The notes: generated from the letters alone by a model not told the origin. A DNA stretch of 32,000 nucleotides from Patescibacteria group bacterium (GCA_030549845.1 JAUQQN010000005.1:1080-33079), one strand, 5' to 3'; positions 1 through 32,000 are shown, numbered from the stretch's first letter. Numbers and translations are program-made.

Positions 1-94
1 CTCCCCCCTACCGCCAAATGGCTCCCAGATAAGTAAAAGCAATATAAGTAAAAGTTATAAATATAATAATATTAATAACAAACAAACCAACAAC

Positions 95-127
95 TTATCA
101 ACAGGGTTATCCACAGATTTATCCACA
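95..127 (+). promoter_or_regulatory. Tandem array of three DnaA-box-like 9-mers at 12-bp period
   Basis: TTATCAACA (95-103), TTATCCACA (107-115) and TTATCCACA (119-127) were read directly. They are separated by GGG and GAT. Two copies equal the canonical DnaA box. Confidence 0.55.
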
Positions 128-193
128 ATTAAATGTATTAACTGTAAAAAATATTTCAGAAAAAAAGATATAGTATTAATAATAAGAGGGGGT

Positions 194-220
194 GGAGTGT
201 GTAAAAAATGCTACACCTCC
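194..220 (+). promoter_or_regulatory. Stem-loop 9 nt upstream of the ATG at 230
   Basis: GGAG(T)GTGTA pairs with TACACCTCC, with one bulged T and an 8-nt loop. TAATCTAAT and then the ATG follow. Confidence 0.35.
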
Positions 221-229
221 TAATCTAAT

Positions 230-3386: not shown

Positions 3387-4037
3387 TTAGATTATTAAAT
3401 TCTCGTGTTTCTTATCTCTACAAGAGCATCTTGGCGGCGTATCCATAACTAAAAAAGTATGAAGCATTTGTGCTCTTTGAATTAAATGCTCTAAATACCA
3501 ATCAGAGTAAAAGTGTGGGAATTCTTTAAGTTTTAAACCACCATCTAAATCATATCCAGCATACAATAGTACTCCTTTTACTCTTTTTAGCGCAGCTAAA
3601 TAAAAATTAAGCTGAAGTTTGTGCGCAAAATGTGGATTTGGCGGGACAGTTCTTACGTGTTTAAATTCCCACACCTCCTCATCAACTCCTTTTCCCCTAA
3701 TAGCATCTGCGTGTCCAATAATCTTTATTTTCTCGCCAGCAACATCAACGTCTATAGAGCACTCAACCTCAACCCTATCCCAGAAATTTTTTCCTTCCCT
3801 ATCTTTTAATGATTGGATCAGTCTATGAAAAACTACGCCACCAGCCAATAAAAGAACAATATCGTCTGGAATTTCTTCCGGCTTTTTACCATCAAAAAAT
3901 CGATAATAATTAAACTGCTTCCTTGTGCAGCTCCACGCCAAAACAGATGGTCTGTAAATTCCAATCTTCACTGGCTGATTATTCTCGCCGAAATACTTTT
4001 TTCTACAATAATCCGCGAGTAATTTTTGTATTGTCAT
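3387..4037 (-). CDS. Cas4/RecB-like PD-(D/E)XK exonuclease
   Basis: GHADAI...EVWEFKH...QLNFYL matches the D...ExK...QxxxY order. There are N-terminal C.RK.YF / SCTRKQF cysteines and a C-terminal PPRCSCRDKKH cysteine cluster, as in Cas4-type Fe-S nucleases. The SD AGGGGTGA lies 6 nt before the ATG. Confidence 0.6.
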   Translation of the reverse strand: MTIQKLLADYCRKKYFGENNQPVKIGIYRPSVLAWSCTRKQFNYYRFFDGKKPEEIPDDIVLLLAGGVVFHRLIQSLKDREGKNFWDRVEVECSIDVDVAGEKIKIIGHADAIRGKGVDEEVWEFKHVRTVPPNPHFAHKLQLNFYLAALKRVKGVLLYAGYDLDGGLKLKEFPHFYSDWYLEHLIQRAQMLHTFLVMDTPPRCSCRDKKHENLII

Positions 4038-4079: not shown

Positions 4080-4127
4080 ATTATAAAACAATTTTTATTT
4101 TGTCAACAACTAAAGATATGATATAAT
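4080..4127. promoter_or_regulatory. Back-to-back divergent promoters sharing the -35 region
   Basis: On the + strand: TTGTCA (4100-4105), a 16-nt spacer, then TGaTATAAT (4119-4127). On the - strand: TTGACA (complement of 4101-4106), a 15-nt spacer, then TATAAT (complement of 4080-4085). Confidence 0.55.
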
Positions 4128-6515: not shown

Positions 6516-6543
6516 ATTATACCACACTTCTACATTTTACCAA
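6516..6543 (-). promoter_or_regulatory. Candidate internal promoter giving a near-leaderless mRNA
   Basis: Read on the minus strand: TTGGTA (complement of 6538-6543), a 16-nt spacer, TGgTATAAT (complement of 6516-6524), then 7 nt to the ATG at 6508. Confidence 0.35.
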
Positions 6544-9332
6544 GTTTGTAAAGGAATTCTTTTCCATGTATTAGTATCAACACAAACATATAAATAATCA
6601 CTATCCCATGCTATATCGCCCTTATTACCAGAAGATCCAGATGTTGGTGGTGTTTTGGTATTTCTTAATCTAATAGTATCTGAATCTATATCTAATTTAG
6701 CCGTTGGGGAAGTTGTCCCAATTCCAACATTACCACTTGTATCAATTGTTAATCTTGAAGATGATGATGTCCTATCTATAATAATAAATTTACCCTGTCC
6801 CTCTGCGGCAGTACCCGCAGACGAAAATAATTCCCAAACCCTACCACCACTTAACGCTGTTGCATCTATAGAAATTTTAGCGCCATATAATCCACTTGGT
6901 CCTTGCTTGACTCGTAAATGTGTATTATCTCCAGCTATGTTTACGCTTTTTTCAATGTGTAGCGGTGAATTAGGTGACGTTGTTCCTACACCAACATAAC
7001 CAGATGGTAAAATAGTAAATACTTCATTCCAATACGATGAGTCATCTGGAGTAGAAATGTTTTGATTAGAAAAATAAAATCTTATACCACTATTATTTGA
7101 ACCTATTTTAATTCTACCATTATTAGCCGATCCTGATGTAGTAAAGGTTAAAATATCCAATCCTTTATTATTTTGACAAGATATAAATCCTGTTTTTTCA
7201 TTACCAACTTGCCATATTGGACCCCTAAAGAATAAACCATCATAAGTTACTCCAGAATTTGTGTTATAAATTCTAAGACTTATATCGCTTCCGTAGATAG
7301 TTAATTTATAATTAGGAGATGTTGTCCCTATTCCTACATTACCAGTTATTGCTGGATATAAATTACTTCCACTTACTACCCACGGATCCTGCGCGCCCAT
7401 AGCATGAATTGCTCTTGATAAAACTTGGAAACCAGCTATTTTAATTTCACTCTGATTTGGTTGAAATTCACTAACAGTTAGTTTTATATAACGAGCCATA
7501 ATCCAGCCAACATGGTGCTTAACTCTTGGATTAGTATTATTAGAAACAGAAACTAAAGTAGTCCAGTTAATATTATCTGTACTATATTCAATTGTATAAC
7601 TTTTTGGTATAAATTGATAGCCATCCTGCCAGTTAGTACCGAATGTTATATATGTTATAGCATCAATATTAGATCCTAAATCTACTGTCATACTAGCGGG
7701 AACACTTGTAACGTGCCACTGAGAACCATTGTTCCTGTAAGTTGGACCACCACCATATAAAACACCAGACGTTATTGTAGCCGATTTCCCCCTAGCAACA
7801 TCCCATAAACCAGATATTTGAACTAAACTATCAGATGTAATAATACCACTAACATCTAATTTGGATTGTGTATTAACTGTTCCTATTCCTATACTACCAT
7901 TAACAATAAGATTATTTGTTACCCTTGTATCTCCATTTACGTCAAGTTTATAAGATGGTGTCGTAGTTCCTATTCCTACATTACCAGTTGATGTAATTCT
8001 TAGTCTTTCGTTTAAACCATTGGAGTCTCGACTAGATATTGATAAAAAGCTGTTTGAAGAACCAGGAGATACGCTATTTCCTCCATATATTAATTCAATA
8101 CGCCCACCCATTCCAGCACCACCCCTATCTTGTGCGCTTAGAATTAATGCAGCCCCAGTAGTTGAGTCGTATCCACTGTACAAATCTAATGACCACGATG
8201 TATCTGACCTCCTTATTCCCCTGTTTGTTGAACCGCTACCCCTAACTATTATTCCGCCACCAATATCTAGTTTTTCTTCTGGTGTTATTACCCCAATACC
8301 AACATTACCATTTCCCAAGATAACCATAGCATCAATTTTATTTGTCCACCCATTTTGTAAATTTGTAATAAAATGATGGGCTATAGAAGTTCCTGTTTTA
8401 TCTGATGAGAGAACTAAGCGTTCATCGTTTGTTGGAATATTACCCCTTACCTGGCTAGCTGATTCCCCGCCACCTATTACTGTAAGACCACCAGAACCAA
8501 GAAATAATGAATTACCACCCTGATCTTCGTCAAAACTCATCCACGTAAAAGCATAATTTGTACCTTGGCTTATTAAATTACCACTATGTCTTATATCTCC
8601 AACAACATGAAGCCTAGAATTTGGTGTGTATGTGCCGATACCAAGTCTTTTATTTGTATTATCCCAAAATAAATTTTCGTTTCCACCTATAGTATTAGAA
8701 GATGTTCCAAATGCAATTTGACCAGAAGAAATTGATCCAATTATTGGCGGAATTTTCCAACTTACATTACCCTGGTCATCAGATGTTAAAACCTTACCAT
8801 TACCAGGATTACCACTTGTTATTTTTAGTTGATTAGAAATTATTAATGGCGATGAAAATATATATTCTCCCGGCGTACTATTTTTACCAAATTCACCACT
8901 AGATACATAATCAGCCTTCACATTAGTTGGTGGAACAATTCCCAAAACCTTAATATTGCTTATTTGAAATTTTAATTTGTCTATCAATTTTTTTATGTTT
9001 TCTATATCTTCTAAAATATCTTTTATTTTTTCATTTGAATCATTTTTTATTTTTTCAATTTCTTCTTGAATAGAAATAAGTAAATTATTTAAGGATAATT
9101 CAAGAGCATTTAATTTTATCTCTAGTTGTTTTTCGCTTTTTTCTTCTTGTTTTTTAAATTTTTCTCTATTTTCTTCAATAAAAACCTTAATAATGTTGTA
9201 AAGATTTTCTAAATCACTTTTTAGTGCCTCGCCATCTTTTATTAATTTATAAACACTGCCCTCATTTTCTTTCAGTTTTTTGTTGAGTTTATTAAATACT
9301 TCTTTTAGTTGATTTACAATAACCTCACTCAT
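6537..9332 (-). CDS. Tail fibre / receptor-binding protein with coiled-coil N-terminus, repeated G-N-V-G-I-G-T motifs and a discoidin (F5/8 type C)-like domain
   Basis: Seven copies of the (G)NVGIGTTxPxxKLxV motif are present. WHVTSVPASMTVDLGSNIDAITYITF...YTIEYSTDNINWTTL...ARYIKLTV fits the discoidin pattern. The C-terminal GDIAWDSDYLYVCVDTNTWKRIPL is a typical fibre end. Confidence 0.7.
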   Translation of the reverse strand: MSEVIVNQLKEVFNKLNKKLKENEGSVYKLIKDGEALKSDLENLYNIIKVFIEENREKFKKQEEKSEKQLEIKLNALELSLNNLLISIQEEIEKIKNDSNEKIKDILEDIENIKKLIDKLKFQISNIKVLGIVPPTNVKADYVSSGEFGKNSTPGEYIFSSPLIISNQLKITSGNPGNGKVLTSDDQGNVSWKIPPIIGSISSGQIAFGTSSNTIGGNENLFWDNTNKRLGIGTYTPNSRLHVVGDIRHSGNLISQGTNYAFTWMSFDEDQGGNSLFLGSGGLTVIGGGESASQVRGNIPTNDERLVLSSDKTGTSIAHHFITNLQNGWTNKIDAMVILGNGNVGIGVITPEEKLDIGGGIIVRGSGSTNRGIRRSDTSWSLDLYSGYDSTTGAALILSAQDRGGAGMGGRIELIYGGNSVSPGSSNSFLSISSRDSNGLNERLRITSTGNVGIGTTTPSYKLDVNGDTRVTNNLIVNGSIGIGTVNTQSKLDVSGIITSDSLVQISGLWDVARGKSATITSGVLYGGGPTYRNNGSQWHVTSVPASMTVDLGSNIDAITYITFGTNWQDGYQFIPKSYTIEYSTDNINWTTLVSVSNNTNPRVKHHVGWIMARYIKLTVSEFQPNQSEIKIAGFQVLSRAIHAMGAQDPWVVSGSNLYPAITGNVGIGTTSPNYKLTIYGSDISLRIYNTNSGVTYDGLFFRGPIWQVGNEKTGFISCQNNKGLDILTFTTSGSANNGRIKIGSNNSGIRFYFSNQNISTPDDSSYWNEVFTILPSGYVGVGTTSPNSPLHIEKSVNIAGDNTHLRVKQGPSGLYGAKISIDATALSGGRVWELFSSAGTAAEGQGKFIIIDRTSSSSRLTIDTSGNVGIGTTSPTAKLDIDSDTIRLRNTKTPPTSGSSGNKGDIAWDSDYLYVCVDTNTWKRIPLQTW

Positions 9333-23433: not shown

Positions 23434-23440
23434 AATTTTA

Positions 23441-23755
23441 TTATAAACCCTCTTTTTCTTTTGTCAAGAAAGAGGTATATAGGTCTATTTGTTTAATTAA
23501 TTCCGATGGTAAAGAAATTAAAAAATCAATAGCAACCAAACTTTGTTTATATGCATAAAAGTCGTCTATAGATCCTCTTGTATCCTTTTTAAAATTATCT
23601 AAAAGGTTCTCTCTAGCCTCAAGTAATATACTTTTTAAAACAGACCATTCTTCTGAACCCTCTAAAACCCTTAATTTGGTTAAAATTCTATGTGCTTTTT
23701 CTAAATCATCTCCTATTAATTTTTCTAATGTTTTTTGAAAATAAATATCCTGCAT
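23441..23755 (-). CDS. Hypothetical protein (104 aa)
   Basis: The ORF lies in the head module. No family was recognised. Confidence 0.45.
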   Translation of the reverse strand: MQDIYFQKTLEKLIGDDLEKAHRILTKLRVLEGSEEWSVLKSILLEARENLLDNFKKDTRGSIDDFYAYKQSLVAIDFLISLPSELIKQIDLYTSFLTKEKEGL

Positions 23756-26292: not shown

Positions 26293-27645
26293 TTAAATAT
26301 TATACCACTCTTTTTGAAAATTAAGAAGACTTTTTATTTTGTCTATATCAACAAAAAATGTTAGAGCAAGGGCATCGGCAACGTCTGGAGATGGAATACC
26401 CCTTTTCCTTAAAATGTCTTTTGGTATTATCATTATTTTTTTATCAGAATTTTTTTTATATTTAATGTTTAAAATTTGATTAAATGAATCATCTTTAATT
26501 AATTTTCCTCCCCCCAAAATCCAATTTCTTAACTTCCAGTATAGCTCCGCCCTAATATTTAAAAAATCTGGCTCAGATGATTTATTTCCCAAAACAATCG
26601 GAATTAAATTTAAAAAGCCGATTTCCCTTAATCTATCTACAACACCCCTTCCAACACCAATTGCATCTATACAAATTTTAATAATTGGATAAATTTTTGA
26701 TAAATTAAAAATTAAAGTAATAATTTGCATCGTATCTTCTAATTTTTGATTAAATACTACTTTTGCTAATAAATTATTTCTTAAAACTATTGCTGTTTTA
26801 TCTCCTCCGGCCCCAACATCAACACCAAGTATGTTTTCTGAGTTTTTAAAAATTTTTTCAAATTCCTCGCCAAATACAAATGCATTTTCTAGCTCTTTAG
26901 ATGTAATCAATGAAATAAAGCCCGACTCATCCATTTCACCCTCGAAAGCATACCAGTCACCATCCAAAAATGCCCCCCTTTCTTTTTCTGGTAAACTTTT
27001 AAGTTGCTCAAAATATTCATAATTCAAATATGGATTATCGTGTGGTAATGCCTTAATAAAAGCTATTTGATTCCTATATTTCTCAAACTCTGATGGAAGA
27101 TTTTTTTCAACAAAAAATTGCCTTACCCATAGCATATGTTCTCCAATTGGATTTGATGCGCAGATAAATTTTGTATCTTCAATACCAGGATATCTTAATC
27201 GAGTTAAAAGAATCTTAAAAGTTTCAAATGGTATTTGTGTTATTTCATCAATTGCCATTAAAGCAAATTCAGCAGAAAGATATTTTTCTGGTTCATCTAG
27301 GTTCCTAAAACTAATAATTGCTCCCCCATATTCTTCTTTTAAGTGAAATTCCTTTTTTTGCTCATAAAAGTCTCCTAACCATTCTGGAAATTCTTGTCTA
27401 ATATACTTTAAATGTCTGTCTTCTAATTCCTTATAAGTTTTACAAAATAAGCCAATATGAGTAGAAGCGCCATATTTTTTAGCATAATACAAAGCATAAT
27501 ATAAAGAAATCCATCTCAGTGCATAACTTTTTCCACTCCCAGCACTCCCCCCGTACAAAACAAATTTATTTTCTTTTGTAGCCCGTAAAAACTCAATCTG
27601 TTTTTCAAAAAAATTTGCTAACCGAAAAAAGTTTATTTTATTCAT
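26293..27645 (-). CDS. terL: Terminase large subunit
   Basis: It has Walker A (LYGGSAGSGKSY), Walker B-like (LMAIDEITQ) and C-terminal nuclease-domain acidic motifs (LGVDVGAGGDKTAIV, SPDVADALALT). The ATG at 27645 is preferred to the TTG at 27654. Confidence 0.85.
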   Translation of the reverse strand: MNKINFFRLANFFEKQIEFLRATKENKFVLYGGSAGSGKSYALRWISLYYALYYAKKYGASTHIGLFCKTYKELEDRHLKYIRQEFPEWLGDFYEQKKEFHLKEEYGGAIISFRNLDEPEKYLSAEFALMAIDEITQIPFETFKILLTRLRYPGIEDTKFICASNPIGEHMLWVRQFFVEKNLPSEFEKYRNQIAFIKALPHDNPYLNYEYFEQLKSLPEKERGAFLDGDWYAFEGEMDESGFISLITSKELENAFVFGEEFEKIFKNSENILGVDVGAGGDKTAIVLRNNLLAKVVFNQKLEDTMQIITLIFNLSKIYPIIKICIDAIGVGRGVVDRLREIGFLNLIPIVLGNKSSEPDFLNIRAELYWKLRNWILGGGKLIKDDSFNQILNIKYKKNSDKKIMIIPKDILRKRGIPSPDVADALALTFFVDIDKIKSLLNFQKEWYNI

Positions 27646-27875
27646 ATATACCAAATAAAAATTATATTAAATTTTTGCCCAAAATTGTCTTATAATTGAT
27701 GTTTTTTTTATTCCCTTGTACCACCCTACAAGAGATTAAATTAATCATAAATTATAACTCAAAATAAAAGAATTTTTCCAACTAGCTTAATCAAATTTCA
27801 CATATTTTTATTTTTAAAAACAAATCTAAACAGATTAGATTTTTAAAATCTAATTTTTATTTTTTTTTAAAAAAA

Positions 27876-28464: not shown

Positions 28465-28630
28465 GTTTCCAATGAACTAGTGTAGGATTGAAAGACTTAT
28501 TTTTATTTTAATAATATAAAAAAATCTTTTGTTTCCAATGAACTAGTGTAGGATTGAAAGGAAATTAAAGCAAGTGTAGATAAAATTACACTAACACTAA
28601 GTTTCCAATGAACTAGTGTAGGATTGAAAG
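28465..28630 (+). CRISPR. Orphan mini-CRISPR array: 3 identical 30-nt repeats, 2 spacers (36 and 40 nt)
   Basis: The repeat GTTTCCAATGAACTAGTGTAGGATTGAAAG occurs at 28465-28494, 28531-28560 and 28601-28630. The spacers are 28495-28530 and 28561-28600. The 3' ATTGAAAG sets the orientation. No cas gene lies in the window. Confidence 0.7.
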
Positions 28631-28798
28631 ATGCTTGGAAGAGGTTAAAGATTTTATTTTCAAATGGTAAGGGGATTGATTTAACATTGAGCTAATCCTA
28701 AAACTAACATTATAGTAGAGCTTGCTTTTTTATCATGGAATTCTTTCTGTTTTTGCTCAAGATATTTTTACTTTAATTTTAATTTTCTAATCTTTAAG

Positions 28799-28845
28799 TT
28801 ATCCACAGTCCATGTGCTTGACAAAAAAAATTTGAGGAATATAAT
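28799..28845 (+). promoter_or_regulatory. Promoter P1: TTATCCACA box, 10 nt, TTGACA, 16 nt, TATAAT
   Basis: The box is at 28799-28807, the -35 at 28818-28823 and the -10 at 28840-28845. Both hexamers match the sigma-70 consensus. Confidence 0.65.
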
Positions 28846-28877
28846 TATTTAAAGTTAAAAAAATAAAAATTAAAAAA
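28799..28877 (+). repeat. Left arm of a 79-bp imperfect inverted repeat (partner 31099-31177)
   Basis: Hand alignment shows that the box, -35, -10 and a 32-nt post -10 block (TATTTAAAGTTAA[A/G]AAAATAAAAATTAAAAAA) are identical apart from one base. The spacers are partly diverged. Confidence 0.7.
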
Positions 28878-28920
28878 TTTGGCTGCCACATGGTATTTAA
28901 AGAATACCGAGGTGGCCAAA
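28878..28920 (+). promoter_or_regulatory. Long imperfect 5'-UTR stem-loop 4 nt upstream of the ATG at 28925
   Basis: The outer stem is TTTGGCTGCC / GGTGGCCAAA (two G-T pairs). The inner stem is GGTATT / AATACC with a 5-nt loop. Confidence 0.45.
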
Positions 28921-28924
28921 AAAT

Positions 28925-29320
28925 ATGAATGAAAAAGAAAGAAGAAAAATTAAAGTTGAAAAAATTAATTTTAGGGGCGAGGAAGTGTATACAATCAAAC
29001 TTAGAAGGTGGCTCTCTCACGGTAAGGAGTGGGCAGCCCTAATTGTAAACGGAGTAATAACTAGTGATGGTAAAAAAATAATAAATTTAGAATTTTGCCC
29101 GAAAATAATTTTTGAGTGGTCTCATTCAGGAAAAAACGGAACAACTATAGTGAAATTGTTAGGAGGAGGATTTTACAAAATCTCAAATCCTGATGGTGTT
29201 TACGGAAAAGACGCCATTGGCTATTATTTCTGGGATGGAAAAAGTGATGAAATGAAAGAAGTGGATGAAGACTTTGCAATTATTTACGCAGATACATGGT
29301 CTTATCACATCCAAAAATAA
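28925..29320 (+). CDS. Hypothetical protein (131 aa)
   Basis: The ORF is driven by P1. No family was recognised. Confidence 0.5.
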   Translation: MNEKERRKIKVEKINFRGEEVYTIKLRRWLSHGKEWAALIVNGVITSDGKKIINLEFCPKIIFEWSHSGKNGTTIVKLLGGGFYKISNPDGVYGKDAIGYYFWDGKSDEMKEVDEDFAIIYADTWSYHIQK

Positions 29321-29412: not shown

Positions 29413-29456
29413 TAAATTTTATTTTTTAAGATTCTAAATTTTATTTTTTAAGATTC
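29413..29456. repeat. Perfect 22-bp tandem direct repeat x2 (TAAATTTTATTTTTTAAGATTC)
   Basis: The copies are at 29413-29434 and 29435-29456. The second copy contains the stop and last codons of the minus-strand gene 29448..30578. Confidence 0.8.
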
Positions 29457-30578
29457 TGCTGTAAGATTTTTATATTCCTCTTCAGTAATTTTAAATTTCC
29501 AAGCAAATGCGGAATAGACACTATTTATATTTTTTGGAATAAATGAAATATATTCTTTCCCTGTGCTTATATCTTTATATTTTAAAAATTTAACAAAATC
29601 ATTTGTATTTTCATTTAAAACCATCCACAACTCCCCCCTCTCATTTTTATCTTTTAAAACAGCCAATTTTTCATACTCAAGTGCTTTTTCTAATCCGCCA
29701 ATAAATTTTGTAAATATAACTCTTTTTTCTACATTTCTTATTCCTAATAAATTATAAATACTAATATTTTTATTTAAAATAAGAGAAGACTCAAGCACCT
29801 CTTTGTCTGAGTTCTCATGTAATAATAAATATTTAAAATCTATTTTATTTTTTTCTAACAAATTTTTTAAAATGTTTAAATCATTAACATCTTGAAAGTT
29901 AAAATAAAAATAAAATGATTGCATAAAAAAATCTGAATTAGAATTAAATAAATTATATAAACTTTCTTTATTTATTAATAATTTCATAACCCCGCTTATG
30001 TGCATTTTTTTATTATTAATAATTTCTATTCCAAGCATGTCAACAACATCTACATTCTCAATAATTACTTCTTTTGTGCTTACTTTCTTTTTCTCTCTTA
30101 AAACCGGCAAAAATGATAAAACATTACCCCTTTTTATATTAATATTTTTAATTCTTTTATTTTTATTTTCAACAAAAAGCATTAAATTATCAAACCCCTC
30201 ACCCTCTATAACCTGAAAATTTGAGAAAACCTTAAAAGATTTTTTTATATTATTAAAAGAAAAATAAGTATATATTTTTTTATCGACCGTCAGCTGTGCA
30301 GTTTTTGAATAAACATCATTTAAATAAATTTTTAAATAGCTACTTAAAACAGGTAAATTATTATCTATTTTAATATCTAGCTCTCCTGTCTCTAGCCCCT
30401 GCACAACAACATTTTTAACATTTAAAAAATTACAATATAAAAACTCATTAACTTTTTCATTATAATTTTTCCCTGTTAAATAAACATCTTTTATATTTTC
30501 CTCATAAAATTCTAAAACTTTACTTTCTTTTTTACTTGTATAATTTTCATCTTTTATTAATATTTTTTTATCAAGCAT
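29448..30578 (-). CDS. Hypothetical protein (376 aa), N/K/I-rich
   Basis: This is a long ORF. The C-terminal GELWMVLNENTNDFVKFLKYKDISTGKEYISFIPKNINSVYSAFAWKF is reminiscent of a conserved domain I cannot name with confidence. Confidence 0.5.
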   Translation of the reverse strand: MLDKKILIKDENYTSKKESKVLEFYEENIKDVYLTGKNYNEKVNEFLYCNFLNVKNVVVQGLETGELDIKIDNNLPVLSSYLKIYLNDVYSKTAQLTVDKKIYTYFSFNNIKKSFKVFSNFQVIEGEGFDNLMLFVENKNKRIKNINIKRGNVLSFLPVLREKKKVSTKEVIIENVDVVDMLGIEIINNKKMHISGVMKLLINKESLYNLFNSNSDFFMQSFYFYFNFQDVNDLNILKNLLEKNKIDFKYLLLHENSDKEVLESSLILNKNISIYNLLGIRNVEKRVIFTKFIGGLEKALEYEKLAVLKDKNERGELWMVLNENTNDFVKFLKYKDISTGKEYISFIPKNINSVYSAFAWKFKITEEEYKNLTAES

Positions 30579-30586
30579 GTTTTTTT

Positions 30587-30621
30587 AATCCTTAAATCCT
30601 AATTTTTAGGATTTAAGGATT
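30587..30621 (-). promoter_or_regulatory. Perfect 16-bp stem-loop 8 nt upstream of the ATG at 30578
   Basis: AATCCTTAAATCCTAA TTT TTAGGATTTAAGGATT. On the minus strand it is followed by AAAAAAAC and then the ATG. It has no T-tract, so it is not a classical terminator for the upstream gene. Confidence 0.5.
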
Positions 30622-31035: not shown

Positions 31036-31072
31036 TGGATTAATCAAAATGCTGAGCATTTTAATTAATCCA
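31036..31072 (-). promoter_or_regulatory. 17-bp 5'-UTR stem-loop 7 nt upstream of the ATG at 31028
   Basis: TGGATTAAT(T/C)AAAATGC arms surround a 3-nt loop. The single non-Watson-Crick position is a G-U pair only in the minus-sense RNA. Confidence 0.55.
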
Positions 31073-31098
31073 TTTTTTAATTATTTTCTTATTTTAAT

Positions 31099-31177
31099 TT
31101 TTTTAATTTTTATTTTCTTAACTTTAAATAATTATATTCTTAAAATTTTGCTTGTCAAGTACGGAGATTGTGGATAA
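31099..31177 (-). repeat. Right arm of the 79-bp inverted repeat (partner 28799-28877)
   Basis: The reverse complement aligns with 28799-28877, as described for the left arm. Confidence 0.7.
31131..31177 (-). promoter_or_regulatory. Promoter P2: TTATCCACA box, 10 nt, TTGACA, 16 nt, TATAAT (minus strand)
   Basis: The box is the complement of 31169-31177, the -35 the complement of 31153-31158 and the -10 the complement of 31131-31136. Confidence 0.65.
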
Positions 31178-31278
31178 CTTAAAAAGTTATTTTATATTTT
31201 TTTACCCCCTCTATTCACCCCCCACCAGTTTATAAATTTTTTTATTGCTTATAAGATATAAGATGGATACCGAATAAG

Positions 31279-31325
31279 TTATGCACAATTCAAAAACTTG
31301 ACAAATAAAAAATTGGAAATATAAT
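31279..31325 (+). promoter_or_regulatory. Promoter P3: TTATGCACA box, 10 nt, TTGACA, 16 nt, TATAAT
   Basis: The box (one mismatch) is at 31279-31287, the -35 at 31298-31303 and the -10 at 31320-31325. It is divergent from P2. Confidence 0.6.
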
Positions 31326-31340
31326 TTTTAAAATTAAAAA

Positions 31341-31379
31341 TTGTTGTTAGTTTGTTCGAGAAGAATAAACTAACAGCAA
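31341..31379 (+). promoter_or_regulatory. 13-bp (plus inner 3-bp) 5'-UTR stem-loop 2 nt upstream of the ATG at 31382
   Basis: TTGTTGTTAGTTT pairs with AAACTAACAGCAA (one G-T pair). An inner TTC/GAA stem is also present. Confidence 0.5.
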
Positions 31380-31381
31380 AA

Positions 31382-32000
31382 ATGAATATGAAAGACAAAA
31401 AAACAAATCAAATACTACCACTTACAGAATTTGGAACTAAAAATATAATTAAAAAAGCATCTATGCTAGCGAACGAGTTACAAAAAATAATAGAAAAACA
31501 AAAAATATATGTTATGATAGAGGGGAAGAAATTTATAACTGTAGAGGGGTGGAATACGCTTGGGGCCATGCTTGGTGTCTTCCCCGAGGTAACGAATACA
31601 GAGAAAAAAGTTGAAGAAGTCAATTTATTTTTAGTAAAAAGAACTAAAAAAAATGGGGATGTTGAAAAAATAATAACAGAAAATCCACTCTCTACCGATG
31701 AGGTAATAGATAAAATAGTCAAAAGAAAAATAACATACGAGGCTGAAGTTAGATTAAAAACTCTGGGCGGTGTGGAAATATCGAGGGCTAGGGCTATTTG
31801 TTCCAGTAGCGAGCGGGGTAAAGAAGATAAGCCAGAATTCATTTTAATGTCAATGGCCCAAACAAGAGCCACGGGTAAAGCTTTCAGACTTGCATTTTCT
31901 TGGATAGTAAAAATGGCTGGGTTTGAACCAACTCCAGCAGAAGAAGCAGAAGAATTTAATAATGAAGAAAAAAATAATCAACAAAAATTAACACTCCTAA
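31382..32000 (+). CDS. Red-beta/RecT-superfamily single-strand annealing protein candidate (3' partial, runs off the window)
   Basis: I translated the frame myself and it stays open from the ATG at 31382 to the window end. FITVEGWNTLGAMLGV and MSMAQTRATGKAFRLAFSWIVKMAGFEPTPAEEAEE resemble lambda Bet VGVDGWSRII and ..MIQCARLAFGFAGIYDKDEAE. This ORF is missing from the ORF track. Confidence 0.45.
   Translation, partial: MNMKDKKTNQILPLTEFGTKNIIKKASMLANELQKIIEKQKIYVMIEGKKFITVEGWNTLGAMLGVFPEVTNTEKKVEEVNLFLVKRTKKNGDVEKIITENPLSTDEVIDKIVKRKITYEAEVRLKTLGGVEISRARAICSSSERGKEDKPEFILMSMAQTRATGKAFRLAFSWIVKMAGFEPTPAEEAEEFNNEEKNNQQKLTLL

Follow-up and report, generated by a model that had tools for sequence, protein, structure and literature searches.

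We describe here a DnaA-box element in a 32,000-nt stretch of DNA recorded under Patescibacteria group bacterium (GCA_030549845.1, JAUQQN010000005.1:1080-33079; hereafter the window, meaning this whole stretch), which is part of a tailed phage with, very probably, a Parcubacteria-type host, i.e., a member of the Patescibacteria or Candidate Phyla Radiation (CPR). The box, TTATCCACA or a one-mismatch variant of it, stands at a set distance upstream of three consensus promoters in the window, and the same arrangement recurs in other viral contigs and in the chromosomes of Patescibacteria. Three more copies lie in tandem within a gene for a putative replication initiator. From these sequence comparisons we favour, with somewhat more confidence than doubt, the view that a host factor, most likely DnaA, reads the boxes at promoters and helps to form the phage origin.

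Both settings of the box had been reported in an initial annotation of the window, and direct inspection confirmed the coordinates and 12-bp period of the tandem triplet as well as every box position given for the three promoters, P1, P2 and P3 (Table 1). These promoters are identical in layout (box, 10 nt, TTGACA, 16 nt, TATAAT), and their hexamers match the consensus at 12 of 12 positions, from which we infer that they are functional. Box, gap and hexamers are conserved among them, whereas the sequence from the box to the -35 is different in each; the spacers of the three resemble each other. The P3 box, TTATGCACA, has a G at position 5 and fits the pattern TTATNCACA, and all three promoters carry the flanking bases found to be conserved in other genomes (see below), the site being AAGTTATCCACAR in each case. 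All of our promoter scans demanded perfect -35 and -10 hexamers. At this stringency the window contains five matches to TTGACA-N15-18-TATAAT, against 0.07 expected, and in three of the five a box lies exactly 10 nt 5' of the -35. The two perfect promoters without a box are at 4080-4106 (minus strand), driving a PD-(D/E)XK nuclease gene (3387-4037), and at 23440-23467 (minus strand), at the end of an open reading frame (ORF; 23441-23755) within the structural block.

Exact copies of TTATCCACA number four in the window, as against 0.58 +/- 0.71 in shuffled sequence, and none of 100 shuffles gave four. Boxes with at most one mismatch, in contrast, number 13 against 10.8 +/- 3.5, and 30 of 100 shuffles reached this figure. 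The enrichment of the 9-mer that had been expected is thus present for exact copies and absent for one-mismatch copies; the box signal is made up of the exact copies and their placement, not of the relaxed count. The initial annotation had also taken the identical spacing of three promoters as its argument for a bound factor. The spacing is indeed the same, but P1 and P2 have to be counted as one event because they are the arms of a single 88-nt inverted repeat, and the three promoters are therefore not three independent events. As P1 and P2 are duplicates, the argument for a function of the box rests on other genomes.

An exact-pattern scan of IMG/VR with the strict form, GTTATCCACA-N10-TTGACA-N16-TATAAT, detected 11 viral loci. 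The intervening stretches are unrelated from locus to locus, which indicates that the loci have an architecture in common but not homologous DNA. A scan in which the gap between box and -35 was left free (0 to 30 nt) detected at least 114 non-redundant viral sites. Among the matches listed, gap lengths peak at 8, 9 and 10 nt (13, 18 and 13 sites, respectively), gaps of 3 to 7 and of 12 to 14 nt are nearly empty, and minor clusters, in some cases families of related contigs, occur around 17-18 and 28-30 nt. This distribution looks like helical phasing. In the same matches the gap and the spacer most often add up to 26 nt, which means that the position of the box is set by its distance to the -10. 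If transcription is assumed to start 7 nt after the -10, the 10-mer would span about -54 to -45. The flanks are also conserved, with A at -1 in 83-95% of sites, A at -2 in 60-65% and G at +1 in about 50%, and together they define the extended site AAGTTATCCACAR. The earlier proposal of a factor bound at a fixed position is supported by this recurrence with unrelated sequence, by the gap peak at 8-10 nt and by the conserved flanks.

The box is also common in reverse orientation, TGTGGATAAC, 5' of consensus promoters, where the gap peaks are at 4-6 and 15-18 nt. Orientation-specific distance rules of this kind would be expected of an asymmetric protein that contacts RNA polymerase. In some phage promoters (L047, L019 and L075; L numbers denote collected loci and contigs) boxes are located between the -35 and the -10, which suggests repression at these promoters. 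Neighbouring boxes on the same strand of phage contigs are 11 bp apart in 11 cases and 12 bp apart in 23, and arrays of three to six boxes occur, usually 5' of a promoter. The reverse-box promoters, in which TGTGGATAAC and then a T-rich sequence precede TTGACA, make up a second promoter class in the viral loci L223-L336.

A similar scan of bacteria, using one genome per species and the pattern GTTATCCACA-N8-10-TTGACA-N16-17-TATAAT, found 98 loci in 185,579 species genomes, where we estimate that 0.4-3 would occur by chance. Seventy-two of these loci are in genomes named as Patescibacteria or CPR, including Parcubacteria, Saccharibacteria, Moranbacteria, Magasanikbacteria, Gracilibacteria and Nomurabacteria; 11 are named only as 'bacterium' and 15 have other names. 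Several of the 15 are from third-party metagenome-assembled genomes, with a LexA near-identical to that of a Patescibacteria single-cell genome. The genes downstream encode LexA (8 loci), RecA (4), DUF3276 (4), NrdR, GreA, Phd/YefM antitoxins, helix-turn-helix (HTH) regulators, an SDH protease and a Bro-N protein. Elsewhere in these loci, which total 709 kb, there are 44 additional exact boxes, about 5 times our own estimate from composition, and a -35-like hexamer is present at a gap of 8-10 nt for 13 of the 44. Among 24 consensus promoters in CPR loci that had not been selected through the box, a box-like site was found at only one; the box therefore marks a subset of promoters, as the site of a factor would. 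These results indicate that the box promoter is typical of Patescibacteria chromosomes and that it is probably a control element of the host lineage.

Several features of the box point to DnaA as its reader. The extended motif, AGTTATCCACAG, is identical to box R4 of the Escherichia coli oriC over 12 of 12 bases, and G at -1 and +1 is common to the box motif and to E. coli R1. In 33 variant boxes lying 11 or 12 bp from exact ones, the mismatches at successive positions number 6, 2, 11, 1, 9, 8, 5, 4 and 0; positions 3 and 5 hold 20 of the 46 mismatches and positions 2, 4 and 9 are almost fixed. The DnaA-box consensus is TTWTNCACA, degenerate at positions 3 and 5. The pattern in the variant boxes matches this degeneracy, except that position 6 is more variable than the E. 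coli consensus would predict. The same site is present both at a replication gene and at the promoters of DNA-metabolism genes. Searches of the window and of some 2.5 Mb of collected loci, by tblastn (with E. coli DnaA domain IV as the query) and by a regular expression for the DnaA signature, detected no dnaA-like gene, and no collected locus contains an oriC. As no phage dnaA was found, a host protein would be needed, and CPR bacteria encode both dnaA and dnaN. Moreover, the presence of the box promoter 5' of chromosomal lexA, recA, nrdR and greA argues that the reader is encoded by the host and is not a protein of this phage. Of the two readers that had been offered initially, host DnaA or a phage protein of the same specificity, these loci favour a host-encoded reader and speak against a phage-specific one.

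The triplet is coding and not intergenic, as it encodes the peptide LSTG-LSTD-LSTI. A public contig, L337, which is 99% identical to positions 1-997 of the window (9 mismatches), adds 1,090 nt upstream and so extends the gene in which the triplet lies. The N-terminal half of the encoded protein contains an HTH_36 winged helix (PF13730, E = 1.6e-9, residues 28-82), its PHROG matches are described as 'replication initiation protein', 'O-like' and 'DnaD-like helicase loader' (E = 5e-9 to 5e-7), and its C-terminus has a CxxC-N17-CxxC zinc ribbon. An Asn/Lys linker of low complexity joins the HTH_36 domain to the zinc ribbon, and the triplet is situated at its end. The suggestion that the triplet could be an origin is strengthened by this location in the linker of an O/DnaD-like initiator, and we regard it as a putative origin. 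If it is one, the A+T-rich stretch at 31-94 would be a candidate unwinding region. Both flanks of the triplet are very A+T-rich, but the whole region has only about 25% G+C, and the flanks therefore hardly discriminate such a region. Cumulative GC skew tracks gene orientation and locates no origin.

The favoured reading can be set out for each of the two settings. At promoters, a host protein, most probably DnaA, would bind AAGTTATCCACAR as a monomer at about -50, where it would sit on a defined face of the helix beside RNA polymerase and modulate initiation. The modulation may be activation of the class I type, the form that we favour. Within the initiator gene, the three head-to-tail boxes probably nucleate a short DnaA oligomer that would form the phage origin together with the phage initiator or a loader, in the manner of the lambda ori within gene O. 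Patescibacteria have very few transcription factors. A broader proposal, which we put forward tentatively and hold to be somewhat less likely than not, is that DnaA serves as a fixed-position global transcription factor in CPR bacteria, where it would read one R4-type box at about -50 in a promoter class to which lexA, recA, nrdR, toxin-antitoxin genes and regulators belong, and that CPR phages have copied the module for their early promoters, with the boxes in the initiator gene acting also as an origin. If this is true, transcription and replication of the phage would both depend on the replication-initiation potential of the host. Titration by the triplet, and the tie between infection timing and host replication state that the initial annotation had drawn, are speculative.

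A number of points weigh against a regulatory and replicative role of DnaA at these boxes. Perfect hexamers should need no activator, and the site could thus equally be a repressive or a titration site. Contigs related to the host (L350-L352, L221 and L222; see below) contain no box promoters. The duplication of P1 and P2 leaves about two independent promoter events, and support from within the window is thin. With respect to the origin, box 1 of the triplet, TTATCAACA, deviates from TTATNCACA at position 6, and the 12-bp period need not reflect the spacing of a protein because the reading frame forces it. No consensus promoter, and none above background, was found 3' of the triplet, and boxes are absent from the gene and its surroundings in 11 distant relatives of the initiator (30% identity), which probably come from other groups of hosts. 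The view that the triplet is the phage origin is attractive but, because of the last two points, unproven.

It is possible, though unlikely, that the site is read by the host through something other than DnaA, either a factor specific to Patescibacteria or a part of RNA polymerase, such as the alpha C-terminal domain or an extension of sigma region 4, for which the box would be a lineage-specific UP-like or activator element. The position of the site at -54 to -45 falls in the classical UP-element zone, its 5' flank is conserved and A-rich, and its location is fixed relative to the -10; it is also carried by unrelated regulons (SOS genes with a palindrome of their own, toxin-antitoxin operators and HTH genes). 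A polymerase element, however, should not be confined to one of 24 unseeded consensus promoters, and a direct contact with polymerase misfits the arrays of three to six boxes, the copies 17-30 nt upstream, the copies in spacers and the triplet inside a gene. Any second protein with the specificity of the DnaA box would, in addition, have to compete with DnaA at every site, and the agreement of the motif with E. coli R4 over 12 bases would be left aside. A generic UP-like element was rejected, given a box at just one of the 24 unseeded promoters; a core in which 4 of 10 bases are G or C and the occurrence of the box in arrays and in reverse orientation also speak against it.

That the HTH_36 initiator of the phage uses the boxes as its iterons seems to us improbable. 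This protein would then, as in lambda, fire the origin from repeats within its own gene and bind P1-P3 as well, early transcription would be coupled to its own level and the likeness to DnaA boxes would be mimicry or coincidence. The triplet does lie within the initiator gene, which is where O-type initiators bind, and the initiator has a winged-helix DNA-binding domain. The site and its position, however, recur 5' of the chromosomal genes lexA, recA, nrdR and greA of dozens of CPR bacteria, and phage contigs whose genes are unrelated have them too, whereas the initiator has no close relatives in the viral_contigs collection and its distant relatives are boxless.

A very improbable alternative is that the copies in the window have no regulatory role, the box having been inherited with a borrowed host promoter: P1 and P2 would be one duplicated cassette, P3 an older copy and the triplet a translated (LSTx)3 repeat. 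The 88-nt inverted repeat, the similarity of the P1-P3 spacers, the coding nature of the triplet and the absence of enrichment for boxes with at most one mismatch are all in keeping with this. It fails to explain why the sequence between box and -35 has diverged among P1-P3 while box, gap and hexamers persist, and the gap peak and flank conservation across genomes show selection on the element. It is also very unlikely that a peptide repeat would give rise to three near-perfect boxes, as the exact 9-mer is expected 0.58 times per 32 kb.

Finally, we find it scarcely credible, and have rejected it, that the box is part of a Patescibacteria LexA (SOS) operator and the phage promoters are SOS-controlled: lexA, recA, DUF3276, SDH protease and Bro-N genes of CPR bacteria all carry the box, but it is asymmetric, single and unlike LexA sites, it lies 5' of the -35 in a poor position for a repressor, and the SOS genes are marked by a separate and likelier palindrome, GTGA-TATAAT-ATCA, at the -10. 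Most box promoters lack this palindrome (it is present in 15 of 99 CPR and 0 of 43 viral box promoters and in none of P1-P3). The lexA, recA, DUF3276, SDH-protease and Bro-N promoters share the form aGTGA-TATAAT-ATCAct over the -10, at loci that include L128, L139, L142, L152, L165, L171, L185, L191, L196, L197, L199 and L211, and an extra GTGAT is often found directly 3' of the -35 in these promoters. The palindrome probably serves as the LexA operator of CPR bacteria.

Transcription control by DnaA, DnaA boxes as such, origins located in initiator genes and mobile elements that borrow such boxes are all already known, and the element described here shares features with each. The 9-mer TTATCCACA is that of E. 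coli oriC boxes R1 and R4, the extended AGTTATCCACAG being R4, and the head-to-tail arrays with their 11-12 bp period resemble the oriC arrays on which DnaA oligomerises, in which the low-affinity sites of E. coli have a 2-bp spacing. The difference is that the putative DnaA site occurs here as a single box at a fixed distance from a promoter, in Patescibacteria and their phages. DnaA is known to act as a transcription factor at dnaA and nrdAB in E. coli, at dnaA and the sda regulon in Bacillus subtilis, and at gcrA and ftsZ in Caulobacter. Boxes are thus found at promoters of replication and DNA-metabolism genes, a theme to which CPR lexA, recA and nrdR conform. At known DnaA-regulated promoters, each promoter has its own box positions, several boxes are common and the effect is frequently repression. 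The module described here has, in contrast, a single box that keeps its orientation and its distance (a gap of 8-10 nt, about -50) at more than 100 promoters of many lineages, and phages have co-opted it.

The origin of phage lambda lies inside gene O, P22 and SPP1 have similar origins inside their initiator genes, and the lambda iterons are 19-bp O sites. The window resembles lambda in having direct repeats in the part of an O-like initiator gene that encodes an interdomain linker, next to an A+T-rich neighbour; the repeats of this putative origin are, in contrast, 9-mers with the sequence of the host DnaA box and a 12-bp period. The origins of P1 (oriR), F, pSC101 and RK2 combine host DnaA boxes with separate Rep iterons. 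Like these, the window is from a mobile element with consensus boxes at a replication region and an initiator of its own, but no second set of iterons was identified here, and the same box also decorates the phage promoters. A parallel in mechanism is provided by MarA, SoxS and Rob, which are monomeric, asymmetric activators with class I and class II sites and rules of orientation and distance. The forward box at a gap of 8-10 nt, the reverse box at 4-6 nt and the further clusters about one helical turn away are reminiscent of these rules, although neither the protein family nor the sequence is the same and only the mechanism is analogous. UP elements, which are sites for the alpha C-terminal domain at -59 to -38, occupy the same promoter zone and share the A-rich 5' flank; unlike them, the box has a core that contains G and C, is sequence specific, occurs at a minority of strong promoters and is found in arrays and in both orientations.

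In the literature searched, which did not extend to the SOS study of Sanchez-Osuna et al. (2017), an R4-type box in one orientation and at one distance at more than 100 promoters has not been described. Transcription control in CPR bacteria and their phages is almost unknown, and few of them can be grown. The 13-bp element offers a testable entry point into this control through DnaA or another reader, and may help in assigning uncultured phages to CPR hosts. It may also connect replication status with the DNA-damage regulon and with the early gene expression of phages. For the phage studied here, the box sites suggest where the origin is located and which promoters start the infection programme.

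The remainder of the window, which has about 30% G+C, is organised as follows. A block of minus-strand genes that extends between about 28.3 and 4.5 kb includes those for the large terminase (26293-27654), the portal, the major capsid and the tail, and small, early-type genes are on the plus strand at 230-2720 and from 31382 onward. P2 and P3 are mutually divergent. P3 drives a rightward operon starting at 31382, which probably runs on to the nuclease, small HTH and initiator genes seen in L337. P1 drives ORF 28925-29320, and P2 drives ORFs 31028-30636 and 30578-29448. These two promoters bracket a 2.2-kb module that consists of three uncharacterised genes. Searches of these three genes gave no Pfam or PADLOC family and one weak PHROG match of unknown function. 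The two outward-facing genes also begin with similar codons, and the module resembles a cassette with outward-in promoters. The initiator has no close relative in viral_contigs, the first P3 gene product has no relative there by pattern scan, the large terminase has only distant matches in the phage collection, and tblastn of the window ORFs against the collected loci gave only distant homologues. In L304, a homologue of the first P3 gene sits behind a reverse-box promoter.

Table 1. Coordinates of the boxes, promoters and associated features in the window
Feature	Position	Strand	Remarks
Initiator-like gene, 3' end (last 73 codons and stop; whole gene 198 aa)	2-223	+	Via contig L337
Very A+T-rich stretch	31-94	.	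Abuts the triplet on its 5' side; two copies of AAGTAAAAG 15 bp apart
DnaA-box triplet	95-103 (TTATCAACA), 107-115 (TTATCCACA), 119-127 (TTATCCACA)	+	Exact 12-bp period, head-to-tail
P1 (putative promoter), AAGTTATCCACAG	28797-28845; box 28799-28807, TTGACA 28818-28823, TATAAT 28840-28845	+	
P2 (putative promoter), AAGTTATCCACAA	31131-31179; box 31177-31169, TTGACA 31158-31153, TATAAT 31136-31131	-	
P3 (putative promoter), AAGTTATGCACAA	31277-31325; box (TTATGCACA) 31279-31287, TTGACA 31298-31303, TATAAT 31320-31325	+	
Inverted repeat, left arm	28793-28880	+	P1 and start of leader; 88 nt, 88% complementary
Inverted repeat, right arm	31096-31183	-	P2 and start of leader; 88 nt, 88% complementary
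Hairpin in 5' untranslated region of P1 transcript	28878-28920	+	-21.1 kcal/mol, z = -4.6; followed by A-tract and AUG
Hairpin in 5' untranslated region of P2 transcript	31036-31072	-	-19.6 kcal/mol, z = -6.6; followed by A-tract and AUG
Hairpin in 5' untranslated region of P3 transcript	31341-31379	+	-21.3 kcal/mol, z = -8.4; followed by A-tract and AUG

The CRISPR content of the window provides an independent link to a CPR host. A mini-array at 28465-28630, between the DUF5681 gene and P1, consists of three 30-nt repeats, GTTTCCAATGAACTAGTGTAGGATTGAAAG, with spacers of 36 and 40 nt and no cas genes nearby. The repeat is absent from IMG/VR but is present, unchanged, in a cellular-type array in two contigs of one metagenome (L221 and L222). 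There are 12-13 repeats in one of these contigs, and in the other cas1-cas2 adjoins the array. A Cas1 at 78% identity was found on a 17.6-kb contig, L350 (Logan SRR27730012), from the SRR277300xx run series that also yielded a contig overlapping the window. L350 contains a complete type I-B cas operon (cas6, cas7/DevR, cas3, cas4, cas1 and cas2) beside secY, and its CRISPR repeat differs from that of the window at three positions. The best named homologues of the L350 SecY have 66-74% identity and are all from Parcubacteria or 'Patescibacteria group'. CRISPR-Cas systems are uncommon in CPR bacteria. The Parcubacteria-like SecY, the relative of Cas1 and the common repeat together indicate that the host lineage is very probably Parcubacteria, and L350 and the window form a useful host-virus pair. 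No spacer of the host-type CRISPR array matched the window. Spacer 1 of the mini-array itself (28495-28530) matches positions 30234-30269 at 35 of 36 nt, with the mismatch at spacer position 11. The match lies in the phage's own ORF 29448-30578 (minus strand), the spacer being in the same sense as the mRNA, and the spacer could be self-targeting, regulatory or directed against a competitor.

Other observations concern transcript leaders and repeats. The P1 leader has no Shine-Dalgarno sequence, and many window genes are preceded by the same succession of hairpin, A-tract and AUG with no Shine-Dalgarno sequence, the hairpins having z scores of -4 to -8.4. Further pre-gene hairpins are located at 187-221, 1071-1098 and 1673-1702; the hairpin sequences vary by gene, and two of the hairpins belong to a 48-nt repeat 5' of ORFs 1110 and 1713. 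Rfam and tRNA scans of the window found nothing. A perfect G+C hairpin at 2741-2759, GGGGGGCTAATTGCCCCCC, which has T-runs on both strands and lies between convergent genes, is probably a bidirectional terminator, and a 16-bp perfect hairpin at 30587-30621, AATCCTTAAATCCTAATTTTTAGGATTTAAGGATT, separates the two genes of the P2 operon. Lastly, a 931-aa, tail-fibre-like ORF (6537-9332) contains six diverged 51-nt units at 6688-8313, and the protein is internally repetitive.

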